64,000 nt of DNA from Eledone cirrhosa (taxonomy: Eukaryota): NCBI GenBank assembly GCA_964016885.1, contig OZ024752.1, positions 9,982,001-10,046,000 on the forward strand. The letters run 5' to 3'. Position numbers and translations under genes: made by a program. The notes under the pieces are model-generated. The model saw nothing but the letters and a program-made list of their open reading frames with translations, searched no databases and had not been told where the DNA came from. This document shows positions 4,181 through 53,722 of the stretch, piece after piece. Within the stretch, counting starts at the first letter, position 1, and each line of letters begins with the position of its first letter.

Positions 4181-4242
4181 ATATATATATATATATAAAT
4201 TCAAAATACTAACAAAAATAGACATTCGTGTGATCAAATATA

Positions 4243-4305
4243 TTTTATTATACATATTTCAGAGGTACTGAGCTAACTTCAACAGTACGTCCTCATCAGA
4301 TAAAA
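4243..4305 (-). ncRNA. Hammerhead ribozyme motif, family A
   Basis: Minus strand reads ttttat-CTGATGA-ggacgtactg..cagtacctct-GAAA-tatgta-TA-ataaaa. Confidence 0.7.
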
Positions 4306-4490
4306 TAAGATGATTCATGTCATACCCTTACATAGTAGATGATTAAGATTCAGTCATGGTAGTGAATTAGATATGACAAAACTCAATATTTATATACCTT
4401 AAGATTGAGACATGAAAACATTTACATATAATACAGAGGGTGCGTGTGAGAAAGCTCTGTATTATATGTAAATTTGTTCATGTATCAATC

Positions 4491-4552
4491 TTTATCTGAT
4501 GAGGACGTACTGTTGAAGTTAGCTCAGTACCTGTGAAATATGTATAATAAAA
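4491..4552 (+). ncRNA. Hammerhead ribozyme motif, family A
   Basis: tttat-CTGATGA-ggacgtactg..cagtacctgt-GAAA-tatgta-TA-ataaa. Confidence 0.7.
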
Positions 4553-4782
4553 TATACTTGATCACACGAATGTCTATTTTTGTAAATATTTTGAATTAAT
4601 ATTAATAACTCCAGAAAACCAAATGTTGAGTGCTTCTAATCTATTGTAAAACTCATTCTTTGATTTATTCATTGAACCTTGTTTAGCCTTTAAATATATA
4701 TATATATACATACATATATATATATACATATATATATACAATAAATTAATAAATGGAAACTATATTTATAAAACCATAATTA

Positions 4783-4843
4783 TTTTATTATATATATTTC
4801 AAGGGCGACCAAGCCAATCTTGGTGCGCTTTCATCAGATAAAA
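4783..4843 (-). ncRNA. Hammerhead ribozyme motif, family C (element ~4737-4905)
   Basis: Minus strand reads ttttat-CTGATGA-aagcgcaccaag..cttggtcgccctt-GAAA-tatata-TA-ataaaa. Confidence 0.7.
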
Positions 4844-4904
4844 TTTGTTTAATAAATAGTGGCATAACCATGGAAAACAACCTTGACGGTTGAAGATTCG
4901 CTGG

Positions 4905-5075
4905 ATATATATATATATATATGTGTGTGTGTGTGTGTGTGTGTGTGTGTGTGTGTGTGTGTGTGTGTGCGTGTGTGTGTGTATGTGTGTGTGTGTGTAT
5001 GTGTGTGTGTGTGTGTGTATGTGTGTGTTTGCGTGCGTGTGTGTGTGTGTGTGTTTGTGTGTGTGTGTGTGTGTG
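4905..5075. repeat. (TA)n(TG)n microsatellite
   Basis: Seen directly. Confidence 0.95.
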
Positions 5076-6020
5076 TTGGGAGGGGTATAAATGAAGAAGC
5101 TCTCGAACGCAGGAAAATAGTTTTGAAAAGAACACTTTTAGATTTGTAAAATATCTCCCTATTGACGGTAAAGATGACAAACAACCGCCACAGAAAGCGA
5201 ACGCAGAACCTCACAATTCCCACCTGAGCGCTTCATAAGATTGAGATTTCAGATACCCTATTCAATAACATTAGATATTGGCTTTTGCAAATGTGAGGAT
5301 ATTCTTTGTAGATAATAAACATCGAAGCATTCAATGTGTAGAAATATTTTTTGAAATGAAAAACATCTCGAGGTATTTCAGAGGAAAGATGGTGGTTAGT
5401 TTAGTTTTGCAATAGTGGTAGCTTCAGAGCAATTCTATTGCGTGAAATGCAAGCAAACATAACTTTATTATGAAGAATTATTAGATCAATAAGGCCTACA
5501 TGACTTATATCACTGAAAAGTTATGTCAACAAAAGTACTATGTAAATCTCCTATCAGAGAAGAAATAGGGTTGTTTGCATTTCTATATCACTGACAGTTC
5601 ATGCAGATTTTAGTTGAAAGATTTCTATTAGTTTGAAACATGTTCAAATGTAGCCGATGTCGCTGTGTGTCTATGATGATTTTTCCCTTAGTAAATGTGC
5701 TGTGTGCATTTACGATGTTACAGGGAAACAAATATATCATGCCAAGCTGTCAGATACTGGCAGGTCGCCACTGTTGAAGAAATTTTTTAATCGATATAAC
5801 AAGTGTATAGTATTCACAGTGAGAAAATCTTCACGTTGCGTTTCCGAAAAAGGTTTAGGTGAAATGTTGATATTCATTAAGTACGTATAAATATATGAAT
5901 GTATGCGTACATGTATGTATGTGTGGATATTTGTATGAGTTTATGCATGAATGGGTAGATATTTGTGTGCGTGTTTATGTATGCATCATGTTTATATATA
6001 TATATATGATATATATATAT

Positions 6021-6100
6021 ATAATTGTTTCTACTTTTGGCACAAGGCCAGCAAATAACCAGTGTATTACTGGTACTTTATTTTATCGACGCCGTAAGGA
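6021..6100 (-). mobile_element. tRNA-derived SINE (family S1), 3' fragment
   Basis: Matches the 3' part of the full copy at 14459. Confidence 0.8.
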
Positions 6101-6152
6101 TATATATATATATATATATATATACAGTATATATATATATAATAAATGTAAT

Positions 6153-6341
6153 ATAATTGTTTCTACTTTTGACACAAGGCCAGCAATTATCCCAGTACAT
6201 TACTGGTACTTTATTTTATCGACCCCGTAAGGATGAAAGGCAAAGTTAACCTCGGCGGGATTTGAACTCAGCTCGTAAACAGACGTAACTCTTTGCGTCA
6301 AAGCATGGCGTCCGACCCTCTACTGATACTGCCAATCCACC
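6153..6341 (-). mobile_element. tRNA-derived SINE S1, full length
   Basis: A-box-like TGGCAGTATCAG, B box GAGTTCAAATCC, body gcctttcatccttacggggtcgataaaataaagtaccag. Confidence 0.9.
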
Positions 6342-6434
6342 ATAATAAATGTAATATAATATATATAATATATATATTTATATATATATATATATATTAA
6401 ATGTAATATAATATATTATATATATTATATATGA

Positions 6435-50694: not shown

Positions 50695-51221
50695 ATGTGA
50701 AATACATAGGCATGCAAACCGCCAAAGCTATGGTGGTTAAAATATGTAATAATTAGAGGAAGAAAACCAATGCAATATATGTATAGACACGGAAATAAAT
50801 TTTCCTTATAGCGAGATCCCAGATGATAAAAACTTACAACTAAAAATCAAATATAAACGAATAGATGACACATTTTTCTGTAGAGTATATAGGTGCCATT
50901 TTTGATGAACGGACCGTGGAATTGCTTTCTGGAGATTTCGGTGAGACCAGAAATGTGGAATGTCCTGACTCAACTTAACTAGTGAGTCCCCAACTCTTTA
51001 CGTATGTTTTATATCATATCTTTTGTTAATCATTGAGTGTTCCATAAAAATTAAGAAACGTATTTATTGCTCCTGGTTTTTCCATCTATCGCTTATATAA
51101 CTTTCTCCCCCTTCATTAAATTTACTTGTCCAATCCTGCATATAAAGAATCCCTTATCTATATAATGTTTATTACATTCTATGTGTTATGACTTGTAGTT
51201 AATATAGAAATCAATATTATT

Positions 51222-51881
51222 ATGGCAGTATCGGTAGAGGGTCAGATGCCATGCTTTGCAGCATAGAGTTACGGCCATTTACAGTCTGAGTTCAAATCCC
51301 GCCGAGGTTAACTTTGCCTTTCATCCTTACGGGGGTCGAGGAAATAAAGCACCAGTCACGCACTGGGGTCGATTTAATAGACTTTCCCCTCCCCCTCTAA
51401 TTACTGGCCATGTGCCTATACTAGAAATCATTATTATAGTTCTGATGCCACAATAAAATGCAGCCAGTAATGACCTAGTGGTAACGTGTTAGACTTACGA
51501 TCATAATGTCATAGGTTTGATTCCTGGACTGGTTTATGTAGAGGGTCGGATGCCATGCTTTGCAGCACAGTTACGGACTGAGTTCAAATCCCGCCGAGGT
51601 TAACTTTGCCTTTCATCCTTACGGGGTCGATAAAATAAAGTACCAGTAACGTACTGGGGTAATTTCTGGCCGTGTGCCAAAAGTAGTAACGTTTATTATT
51701 TTACCAGTATCGGTAGAGGGTCGGACGCCATGCTTTTCAGAGTAGAGTTACGGCCATTTACTATCTGACTTCAAATCCTGCCGAGGTTAACTTTTCCTTT
51801 CATCCTTACGGGGTCGATAAAATAAAGTACCAGTAATATACTGGGATAATAGCTGGCATTTACCAGAAGTAGAACAATTAT
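51222..51881 (+). mobile_element. Three clustered SINE S1 copies
   Basis: 51222-51436 (long form), 51538-51699 and 51705-51881. Confidence 0.9.
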
Positions 51882-52039
51882 TTATAGCCTACTTGCTAGC
51901 GTTCAGTGGTAGCTACATGTATATATTCACATGTAGGTATTCTCATGTATATGTTTCTACATGTAGGTGCATGTTATCTCGTTTTTCAGATATTAATGCA
52001 GCTTTTTAAACATTAAATTTAAAATGAGCGAGGGGGAAA

Positions 52040-52326
52040 ATGATAGAAAGAGAGAGTGAGGAAGAAAGATTGAGAGAGAGAGAGGGGGTGGAGAGAGATA
52101 GAGAGAGGGGGAAGAGGGAGATAGGGAGAGCGGGAGAGAGAGATATACAGAAACGAATGAGAGAAAGAGAGAGGGAGGAAGAGAAAGTCAGAGAGAAAAT
52201 AGTAAGAGAGAGAGAGAGAGAGAGAGAGAGAGAGAGAAAAAAAAGGAAAGACTGAATGAGAGAGAAGAAAGCTAGAAAGGAAAGAGAGAGAGATAGACAG
52301 AAAGATAGTGAGAGAAAGAGAGAGAT
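52040..52326. repeat. GA-rich low-complexity tract
   Basis: Seen directly. Confidence 0.9.
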
Positions 52327-52399
52327 ATGTGTACGTATGTGTGTCCGTTTGAACGTATATGTCTTTGTTAATCACTTTATGTATCTCTCTGCTTGTGTC

Positions 52400-52850
52400 A
52401 TATATATATATATATATATATATATATATATATTTATTCATATATATATATATATATATATATATATTTATTCATATATATATATATATATATATATATT
52501 CATATATATATATATATATTCATATATATATATATATATATATATATTCATATATATATATATATATATATATATATATATATATTCATATATATATATA
52601 TATATATATTCATATATATATATATATATTCATATATATATATATATATTCATATATATATATATATATATATTCATATATATATATATATATATTCATA
52701 TATATATATATATATATATATATTCATATATATATATATATATATTCATATATATATATATATATATATATTCATATATATATATATATATATATATATT
52801 CATATATATATATATATATATATATTCATATATATATATATATATATATA
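52400..52850. repeat. (TA)n satellite punctuated by TTCA
   Basis: Seen directly. Confidence 0.95.
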
Positions 52851-52896
52851 TACAATATATTAACAAATAGAAACTATATTTATAAAACCATATTTA

Positions 52897-52957
52897 TTTC
52901 ATTATACATATTTCAAGGACACCAAAGCAAATTATGGTGCGCTTTCATCAGATAAAA
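52897..52957 (-). ncRNA. Hammerhead ribozyme motif, family C
   Basis: Minus strand reads ttttat-CTGATGA-aagcgcacca..tggtgtcctt-GAAA-tatgta-TA-atgaaa. Confidence 0.75.
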
Positions 52958-53304
52958 TATAATATAGATCAGTTTTAAAAACATACCCTTAAAAAATGCG
53001 ACCATGTCGGTTGGAAGCTCCCGGATAGTGGGGTTATTAATTTTATTATTGGTCTATTATGCAAATTAGTTTCGGAGAGGTTTAAATCCCAGTACATTTA
53101 AATGAAGCCGTTTTATTTTGTTTGTTTTTTTCCCTATTCCAACGGCTTAATTTAAATGTACGGGATTTAAACCTCTCCGACACTAATTTGCATAATAGAC
53201 CAATAATAAAATTAGTAACCCCACTATCCGGGAGCTTCCAACCGACATGGTCGCATTCATTAAGGGTATGTCAATATTTGTTTATAAAACTGATCTATAT
53301 TATA

Positions 53305-53365
53305 TTTTATCTGATGAAAGCGCACCATAATTTGCTTTGGTGTCCTTGAAATATGTATAATGAAA
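53305..53365 (+). ncRNA. Hammerhead ribozyme motif, family C
   Basis: Mirror copy with an intact core. Confidence 0.75.
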
Positions 53366-53517
53366 TAAATATGGTTTTATAAATATAGTTTCCATTTGTT
53401 AATATATTGTATTTTTACTCCAAAATTTTGTTGAGTGCTTTATATCAGTTATAAAAATATTTGCTTGTTGTATCCCAACAAATTAAATATAACTTCTACA
53501 CACACATATATATATAT

Positions 53518-53722
53518 ATAGGAACGAGAAGGATCCCGACGGCTGAGCTCATGCCGTTTCGACGGCTAATTCTGGACTAAAAAAGTCCAAAATTAGCCTT
53601 CGAAACGGCTTGAGCTCAGCCGTCGGGGTCCTACTCGTTCCTATTACCCACTCTACTACCCTAAGTATTGAGTACTTTGGTGCGTTATGGTCCACCTGGT
53701 TCCTTACCACATTTCCTTCGTT
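53518..53722. mobile_element. Foldback cassette, family D
   Basis: Arms 53518-53578 and 53584-53644; ~78-nt extra tail on the right. Confidence 0.8.

Follow-up and report, generated by a model that had tools for sequence, protein, structure and literature searches.

Hammerhead-bearing foldback cassettes in a 64-kb window of Eledone cirrhosa: probable truncated Penelope-like insertions

The stretch of Eledone cirrhosa DNA analysed here (the window, 64 kb) carries short palindromic cassettes with ribozyme-like arms and one extra tail. Do such cassettes move as hairpins, or are they the products that Penelope-like elements (PLEs) leave when they integrate? The first-pass annotation of the window had kept both readings. 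Our reading, to which a probability of roughly 0.8 is given, is that they are severely 5'-truncated insertions of several endonuclease-bearing (EN+) PLE families, the mirror half likely being built anew at each insertion. The layout is already in print, and the cassettes are not a new class.

Layout of the cassettes

All nine ORF-less cassettes named at the outset proved to be inverted pairs. Together with I2, I3 and G1 they make 12 foldbacks in six families, listed here with the solo copies.

A1, 4198..4692, + strand: foldback; tail-less arm 4198-~4430 (sense on the − strand), turn near 4446; tailed arm to 4597 (+) with an internal deletion of ~100 nt; tail 4598-4692 (95 nt); hammerheads 4491-4551 (+) and 4241-4307 (−)
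A2, 17578..17932, − strand: foldback; tail 17578-17676 (99 nt), arms 17677-17778 and 17831-17932; 52-nt centre, upstream sequence of the tail-less (+) arm
A3, 2430..2730, − strand: solo tailed copy of family A without inverted partner; hammerhead 2558-2619
B1, 25316..25850, + strand: foldback; arms 25316-25529 and 25540-25754, 10-nt loop, tail 25755-25850 (96 nt)
B2, 16025..16409, − strand: foldback; tail 16025-16124 (100 nt), arms 16125-16203 and 16331-16409; 127-nt centre, upstream sequence of the tail-less (+) arm; tailed arm without CUGANGA
C1, 11524..11965, + strand: foldback; arms 11524-11691 and 11697-11878, 5-nt loop, tail 11879-11965 (87 nt)
C2, 52851..53498, + strand: foldback; arms 52851-53112 and 53141-53411, tail 53412-53498 (87 nt); 28-nt centre, upstream sequence of the tailed arm
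C3, 4737..4904, − strand: solo tail-less copy of family C; hammerhead 4782-4844
C4, 34296..34598, + strand: solo tail-less copy of family C with ~200 nt upstream of the core; hammerhead 34491-34555
D1, 41630..41866, − strand: foldback; tail 41630-41701 (72 nt), arms 41702-41778 and 41790-41866; hammerhead 3' half only
D2, 53518..53722, + strand: foldback; arms 53518-53578 and 53584-53644, 5-nt loop, tail 53645-53722 (78 nt); hammerhead 3' half only
D3, 12479..12600, − strand: solo tailed copy of family D, likewise cut before CUGANGA
I1, 25940..26121, − strand: foldback; tail 25940-26016 (77 nt), arms 26017-26067 and 26071-26121; 3-nt loop within the stem I 5' strand
I2, 29104..29392, − strand: foldback of family I; arms 29193-29236 and 29349-29392, 112-nt centre, 89-nt tail
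I3, 2201..2362, − strand: older foldback of family I; turn inside stem II, 4-nt loop, degraded tail
G1, 9654..10060, − strand: foldback of a sixth family (F/G); ~50-nt tail, neither arm with a hammerhead

The arms of the nine cassettes measure 51-271 nt, close to the 50-260 bp first given, and the tail, found on a single arm in every case, measures 72-100 nt (first put at ~70-105 nt). Arm identity over ungapped columns is 91-100%. Compared across cassettes, the two arms of a cassette (90-100% identical) are closer to each other than to arms of other cassettes of their family (71-89% among the nine). Internal deletions are present in A1, C1 and C2. No ORF was found on any copy, nor between the arms.

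The flanking (TA)n was borne out at eight of the nine, where a TA run lies within ~10 nt on both sides; the exception is I1, whose right flank is (TC)n. No target-site duplication is visible in the (TA)n at the cassettes. The tail-less end is fixed in families A-D, where ends align within a few nucleotides, but not in family I, where it varies by ~20 nt. The positions given for this end in family C (4737, 11524, 34598, 52851) and family D (41866, 53518) hold; two of them, 4737 and 34598, belong to solo tail-less copies and not to foldback arms, and the end of A2 was moved from 17925 to ~17932. Five families could indeed be told apart among the nine, but "dissimilar" goes too far: A, B and C share a stem II mismatch and a tail motif is common to all five.

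The unpaired centre, 3-159 nt long in the nine cassettes, varies within each family as had been claimed (A1/A2, B1/B2, C1/C2, D1/D2, I1/I2/I3). Same-family comparisons revealed that the centres are made of upstream element sequence.

Hammerheads in the arms

Among the 150 of 192 Rfam matches listed there was no hammerhead family, only microsatellite-driven miRNA and snoRNA families, and a hand-made type I descriptor (stems I, II and III plus the core) was therefore used. It matched the window 15 times, against 0-1 times in each of 20 shuffles; eight matches lie within the nine cassettes and the remainder in solo or other-family copies. A canonical CUGANGA..GAAA core is present in 11 of the 18 arms, and two carry one core substitution (A2 tail-less, B1 tailed). 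The 5' core is missing from five, namely the tailed arm of B2 and all four D arms. The ribozyme parts face outward in all nine cassettes, as first described for families A, B, C and I. The D arms had been said to keep only GAAAC; they retain the entire 3' half, with stem III and its palindromic loop, the GUC triplet and the stem I 3' strand. The turn of G1 lies downstream of the F/G family hammerhead, which is visible at 3869-3911.

These predicted ribozymes resemble the paired minimal hammerheads of PMC4209133, which lie 100-700 bp from each other on opposing strands and have been read as truncated PLEs. Points in common are type I, a short stem I, a long stem II, a palindromic stem III and loop, and opposite-strand pairs within a few hundred bp. 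The predicted ribozymes differ in the C-C mismatch at stem II pair 4 that is common to families A, B and C, and in the first pair of family C, which is A-U where the consensus has G-C. Among the example rows examined in the PMC4209133 supplement there was no match to the hammerheads of families A, B and C.

It had been proposed that transcription would give a long dsRNA containing one sense ribozyme. The structure bears this out. In the predicted fold, however, 6-7 of the 7 nt of the sense core are base-paired wherever both arms carry a core, so that a read-through RNA would likely mask its ribozyme.

Probable insertion by Penelope-like elements, and rival readings

The mechanism of PLE integration is regarded as unresolved in the papers cited here. 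Insertions into (TA)n that combine an inverted 5'-truncated copy with a one-end tail have been reported (PMC8557442), and the supplement lists a (TA)n-targeting Hydra-clade copy whose inverted partner is 5'-truncated, both strands bearing a hammerhead. Elsewhere the tail was found on one of the inverted pLTRs, with palindromes at the junction (PMC3846280). The cassettes share with such EN+ insertions, as described in PMC3846280 and PMC8557442, a head-to-head 5'-truncated partner joined at a variable point, a palindromic junction, a one-end tail with fixed boundaries (loose in family I), AT-rich or microsatellite targets, and, near the 3' end, a predicted type I minimal hammerhead with the palindromic stem III known from the terminal repeats. 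The earlier suggestion of stereotyped PLE integration products is supported and agrees with these descriptions and with PMC4209133. The cassettes differ from the published insertions in having no ORF between the arms, no direct tandem pLTR, and tails two to three times as long as the published 30-40 bp. A direct tandem pLTR is common, not obligatory, in EN+ PLEs; self-comparison of the window gave none for families A-D or I.

It is by analogy of layout only that the cassettes would be tied to an autonomous PLE, and we infer an attached RT/EN gene. Autonomous EN+ PLEs have an ORF for a telomerase-like RT and a GIY-YIG endonuclease, for which the copies here are too short. Of 301 complexity-filtered frames of the window, the 150 longest (at least 65 aa) gave no Pfam match to RT or GIY-YIG; the one match above a curated cut-off came from a tandem repeat without a passing stretch. 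Families I and F may resemble the Hydra clade (PMC8557442), which likewise targets (TA)n and is marked by the RT and EN motifs RWK, DKT and CxCX5C, with no CCHH. To the eye, their hammerheads are laid out like several listed Hydra motifs, the short stem II having an additional U at either side and, in family I, stem III reading ACAG/CUGU-A. The hammerheads of A, B, C and D, in contrast, lack the Hydra layout. Six exact motifs of families A-C are absent from the PMC8557442 supplement, where motif searches gave no family match.

How would a foldback arise? The RT-endonuclease of the element would nick the two DNA strands within a (TA)n tract. From one of the nicks a cDNA would be primed at a distal start, the tail end, and from the other at a proximal start that lies immediately 5' of the conserved hairpin in the tail. 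The two templates would probably be one and the same RNA, or RNAs of a single source copy. Either cDNA would terminate prematurely, in many cases within the hammerhead or a short way upstream of it, and the two would be joined head to head via a few complementary bases. In vitro, one PLE was found to cleave and extend both strands and to have two internal RT starts bounding the tail; its ribozyme mutants still inserted, which makes ribozyme cleavage dispensable there (PMC11167929). The solo arms of the window occur both with a tail (A3, D3) and without (C3, C4).

The centres bear on the middle step of this scheme. A single cDNA from the tail end might instead fold and copy itself back, an endonuclease cut or bound protein stopping it at the tail boundary. 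This snap-back concerns the middle step only and leaves the PLE origin as it is. Self-priming and EN-mediated resolution are published proposals, private variants are common to both arms, and the 3-11-nt loops of six of the 12 foldbacks (B1, C1, D1, D2, I1, I3) suit it at least as well as twin priming. With one snap-back that starts at the tail end, however, the centre should in every case stay on the tailed arm. That is so in C2 and I1, but in A2, B2 and G1 the centre is sequence of the tail-less arm, which extends 27-127 nt further upstream. These three cassettes favour two separately primed cDNAs; under snap-back they would need a later deletion, and post-insertion deletions could mimic a longer tail-less arm. 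The RT starts that flank the tail in the in vitro work (PMC11167929) also speak against snap-back, which we regard as rather unlikely.

Some families might instead be non-autonomous PLE derivatives, short RNAs without coding capacity that comprise the pLTR only, resemble retrozyme monomers and are moved in trans, with the foldback still made at insertion. The copies lack an ORF, retrozymes, monomer copies among them, reportedly derive from PLEs (10.64898/2026.07.22.740005), and the read depth of family C in public data drops ~40-fold within ~100 nt upstream of the core. Summed over contigs, the X1 depth amounts to 6.9 in the bin that includes the C2 turn (53100-53113), 832 in the next bin, ~6,000-10,800 over 53128-53211 and ~1 million at the core, figures that are not copy numbers, that also fall with subfamily divergence and that may stem from the window's own sample. 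The climb towards the core is stepwise without a plateau. Against this variant, the fall in depth is gradual and not a single step, C2 and C4 extend ~200 nt upstream but have no fixed start in common, and head-to-tail arrays of these families are absent from the window. This variant appears improbable.

A further alternative was a non-autonomous hairpin retroelement, the entire palindrome with its centre being transcribed and re-inserted as a unit. The same design in six families and the fixed tail-less end would suit it, but no two centres are alike within any family of the window, which the first-pass annotation itself had taken as ruling out such a class. The depth of the C2 centre, the one centre checked in public reads, is like that of a single locus. 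Solo arms exist, the ribozyme is absent from G1 and halved in D1 and D2, and the predicted fold pairs the sense core. A self-propagating hairpin is thus highly improbable.

Other junctions in the reads, which come from four runs and do not include the small-share runs X5-X20, are scattered. Among 15 listed of 38 joints, six connect opposite strands and lie either within the element, upstream of the tail-less end, or in its tail; the C2 junction is not one of them. X21 and X22 have five of the six in common, at 1-4 start places each, and the sixth was seen in a single X1 contig. Joints involving 53498-53517 were set aside because the reference ends there in a self-complementary TA run. Loose ends entering (TA)n cluster at 53400-53412, and with them the tail-less end recurs in all four runs.

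Palindromes beside (TA)n are prone to foldback artefacts. Assembly or library artefacts are nevertheless extremely improbable here, even though no listed read piece spans a whole cassette, since the two arms of a cassette are 0-9% divergent and have indels of 10-100 nt besides, one and the same motif marks the asymmetry in five families, and five inverted joints recur in two separate samples.

In MITEs and Foldback DNA transposons both termini carry inverted repeats and the interior is constant within a family; the unpaired 72-100-nt tail at one end and an interior that differs in every copy led to their rejection. Animal non-LTR retrozymes (10.64898/2026.07.22.740005) are, like the cassettes, short, non-coding, PLE-derived and equipped with a type I hammerhead. 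They form head-to-tail tandem arrays, at least two units with complete hammerheads, and have a circular RNA intermediate, whereas the window holds only head-to-head pairs with variable centres and solo copies.

Tails and a shared bulged hairpin

To return to truncated PLE insertions, the tail opens with a bulged hairpin that is common across families and present in 12 of 13 copies. That of C2 (53417..53436, + strand) has an ACUC/GAGU lower stem, a 2-nt 3' bulge and an upper stem. Equivalent hairpins start at the following positions.

+ strand: 4608, 25760, 11882, 53650
− strand: 2501, 16120, 41695, 12529, 26000, 29171, 37767

The cassettes suggest that the inner start lies 4-11 nt 5' of this hairpin in families A-D. 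A loose hairpin descriptor gave 32 matches in the whole window against 12-29 in 50 shuffles, which is not taken as significant, and a strict one gave 10 against a mean of 4.2 and a maximum of 11 in 100 shuffles, again not significant. The motif RTHGARTRCY, derived from the same tails, matched 21 times (12 in tails) where 7.2 were expected, and RNAalifold recovered only the 4-bp lower stem (-0.63 kcal/mol).

The nearest experimental parallel is PAc (Poseidon, green anole; PMC11167929), which likewise has an AT-rich target and a start in a stem-loop. In PAc the ORF itself contains the starts, which sit in an AC-rich stem-loop, whereas the cassette tails share no reading frame evident by eye and have the bulged ACUC/GAGU stem just inside the tail. 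We tentatively propose, as a still doubtful idea, that the hairpin of the long tail docks the RT and so fixes the inner start a few bases upstream, and that a dimeric enzyme copies one RNA twice, from both starts, every short insertion thus being born palindromic. If true, a docking hairpin would supply a cis signal and, with twin priming, a model for the long-unexplained PLE tail and inversion.

Twelve foldbacks of six families in 64 kb amount to a dense natural sample of PLE integration products, and they suggest two testable points of mechanism: either arm may extend further upstream, and the inner start is near a conserved hairpin. Through such copies the host genome would also gain long inverted repeats on a large scale. 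An intron was considered as well, with GTATGT lying upstream of the hammerhead and the tail supplying a pyrimidine-rich CAG, but the match, judged by eye, extends to some copies of A and C and not to B, D or I.

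Layout of the cassettes and their likeness to Penelope-like insertions

The nine intervals that the first-pass annotation had described as foldback cassettes were split at their centres and the halves were aligned. All nine proved to be real inverted pairs, with arms of 51-271 nt that share 91-100% identity over ungapped columns and with centres of 3-159 nt. The claim of one extra tail was likewise borne out, as every cassette has one extension of 72-100 nt that does not pair, while the (TA)n flanks were found on both sides in eight of the nine; in the ninth (I1, 25940-26121) one flank is (TC)n. 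The window contains three further foldbacks built the same way (I2, 29104-29392; I3, 2201-2362; G1, 9654-10060), together with solo copies that are either tailed (A3, 2430-2730; D3, 12479-12600) or tail-less (C3, 4737-4904; C4, 34296-34598).

The full type I hammerhead descriptor matched 15 motifs in the window but only 0-1 per window in 20 shuffles, and every motif found in the cassettes reads outward, as had been proposed. A canonical core is carried by 11 of the 18 arms and a core with one substitution by two; five arms stop before CUGANGA. Stem III of the cassette hammerheads is near-palindromic, the kind expected to work as a dimer according to the available text of PMC4209133. An Rfam scan of the window gave no hammerhead among the 150 matches listed of 192.

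Craig et al. (PMC8557442, in the parts available) describe for Penelope-like elements (PLEs) a 5'-truncated copy that is inverted and placed at the 5' end, (TA)n targets and a tail of 30-40 bp that is often at one end only. Dual minimal hammerheads on opposite strands, 100-700 bp apart and tied to truncated PLEs, were described by Cervera and de la Pena (PMC4209133). Since the cassettes match both descriptions, they appear from this comparison of layouts to be the same in layout and working as insertions of endonuclease-bearing PLEs, and we put the probability that they are PLE scars at roughly 0.9. No match to RT or GIY-YIG was found in 150 of the 301 window frames.

Joining of the arms and the role of the ribozyme

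In one PLE, AT-rich DNA is cut on both strands and each strand is extended, two internal reverse-transcription starts bound the tail, the protein is predicted to form a dimer, and ribozyme mutants insert nonetheless (Frangieh et al., PMC11167929, available text). By analogy, each of two nicks would prime its own short cDNA, one from the tail end and one from the inner start, and these would then be joined head to head. If the cassettes are PLE scars, such twin priming has slightly better than even odds. The alternative is that a single cDNA snaps back on itself, in line with the self-priming proposal of Arkhipova et al. (PMC3846280, as far as its available text goes), which would suit the loops of only 3-11 nt in six of the 12 foldbacks. 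A snap-back from the tail end must make the unpaired centre part of the tailed arm, as is seen in C2 (52851-53498) and I1, but in A2 (17578-17932), B2 (16025-16409) and G1 it belongs to the tail-less arm, although later deletions could mimic these three exceptions. If one RNA were copied two times and both copies stopped near the same point, the short loops and the either-arm centres would both be accounted for. Among these few copies, several arms (A2, B2, D, I) stop in the hammerhead or within ~15 nt of it.

The ribozyme is dispensable for the foldback design. G1 is complete in arms and tail, yet it turned downstream of its own family's hammerhead; D1 (41630-41866), D2 (53518-53722) and D3 each end before CUGANGA. 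In read-through RNA the ribozyme would likely be silenced: minimum-energy folds predicted for entire cassettes engage 6-7 of the 7 sense-core positions in base pairs whenever the core is present on both arms.

Origin of the centres

The first-pass annotation had also raised a self-propagating class of hairpin elements. This is not supported, as the centres differ in every same-family comparison within the window and none is common to two cassettes of one family. From the core, the turn of B1 (25316-25850) is ~130 nt upstream, whereas in B2 the tailed arm ends inside stem II; the upstream distance is ~75 nt in C1 (11524-11965) and ~170-200 nt in C2. The centres of A1 (4198-4692) and A2, of D1 and D2, and of I1, I2 and I3 are unlike too. 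Wherever a third copy permits checking, the centre is upstream element sequence on one arm. The arms are far more alike within one locus than between loci, which argues that both derive from one source copy.

Beyond the window, the centre of C2 only was checked, by comparing four public runs (X1, X4 and the raw-read samples X21 and X22) with its tailed arm. In X1, which is possibly the same sample as the window source, the bin that contains the turn had a summed contig depth of 6.9, comparable to the 4.6-11.4 seen for the eight single contigs listed. Downstream the depth was 832 in the next bin, ~6,000-10,800 over 53128-53211 and roughly one million at the core; such depth does not count copies, and it is also lowered upstream by divergence. 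The depth of the turn bin was 0 in X4 and ~1 in X21 and X22. Depth along the arm climbs stepwise toward the core, which is what 5' truncation would give. Six opposite-strand joints lie inside the element, all at separate places, among the 15 joints listed of 38; five of the six are present in both X21 and X22, with 1-4 start places each, in reads that are reduced-representation and joints that carry no direction. In each of the four runs, loose ends entering (TA)n are concentrated at 53400-53412 and match the tail-less end, in agreement with the fixed short-arm end claimed for family C.

The pattern is real, well observed and already explained in outline, and the new-class reading is unsupported. 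No description of a class of non-autonomous palindromic PLE cassettes was found in the literature searched, mainly at abstract level. Retrozymes, as defined in the available part of a 2026 preprint (10.64898/2026.07.22.740005), were rejected, head-to-tail units being absent.

The tail hairpin and other repeats

Between families A, B, C, D and I the tails gave no BLAST match, yet each begins with ACUC ... UH GAGU. In 12 of the 13 tailed copies (one of the 13, K, chosen because it matches the hairpin) the two positions next after this stem pair over a bulge of 2 nt, against 0-3 of 13 at control offsets of 0, 1, 3, 4 or 5 with the same anchoring. Ten copies were aligned, omitting A2, the exception, and B1 and B2, whose loop is much longer; 93% of cells pair and three of six pairs change on both sides, in related copies from which the structure itself was derived. 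The covariation score was reached by none of 500 shuffles and the count of both-side-changing pairs by 18 of 500, and slid controls were 16-62% paired. The hairpin is weak in energy, and as a free descriptor across the window it is not significant. From the hairpin upstream to the tail-less end, the distance is 4-11 nt in A-D and 17-22 nt in I1 and I2. The hairpin did not turn up in the parts of the literature searched, which took in few subscription journals and not Repbase, and it may already be in print. What the cassettes add to the known layout is modest: tails longer than those published, one hairpin shared by the tails, and junctions at which either arm can be the longer.

Other families and repeats in the window
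3777-4179 (+): family F/G hammerhead copy; hammerhead 3869-3911, then ~270 nt whose last ~50 nt form the tail
19050-19206 (-): further locus of F/G, the sixth family
9654-10060: G1, foldback copy of F/G, no hammerhead
19464-19710 (+), 35349-35590 (-), 36715-37110 (+), 32622-32660 (+): family H hammerhead copies
17373-17446 (-), 34255-34307 (+), 34623-34681 (-), 44599-44671 (-): family J, hammerhead-like fold with variant core CAGAAGA
28095-28430, 55060-55188: family E; the minimal hammerhead has an ACGU palindrome, and the 3' end falls in (CA)n
37690-37900 (-): a solo copy of family K, long-stemmed hammerhead 37800-37877
10174-10444, 60017-60209, 16538-16618: palindromes without hammerheads, two centred on TA runs
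6024-6340 and about 20 other places: SINE-like repeat, ~200 nt, very abundant
40452-40857: 45-bp tandem array joined to one SINE-like copy

The ~50-nt tail of F/G is without the ACUC/GAGU hairpin, and the tail hairpin of K has a compensated G-C base pair. Stem II of A, B and C keeps a C-C mismatch at the fourth pair, and the neighbouring pairs differ between families. Two family H copies have a ~60-nt terminal tail and one is tail-less; those at 35349 and 37110 stand head to head across a TA-rich repeat of ~900 bp. A palindrome with 13-bp arms lies near 36700-36730, and motifs at 36770-36830 resemble ETS, NRF1 and YY1 sites. The family J descriptor match is at 17396-17446, three J copies have a common 3' end, and C4 is flanked by two J copies facing tail to tail. 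The family E copy at 28095 has an inverted arm that is centred on a TA run and stops just before the hammerhead; two overlapping inversions lie within 10174-10444. The frames at 58153-58527 (+), 59416-59778 (-) and 24167-24409 (-), which gave no Pfam match, may be remnants of non-LTR retrotransposons (a restriction-like endonuclease end and RTE-like C-termini). Unlike families adjoin within one TA tract at A1-C3 (4692-4737), B1-I1 (25850-25940) and C2-D2 (53498-53518), which suggests that the same tracts were hit by repeated insertion.
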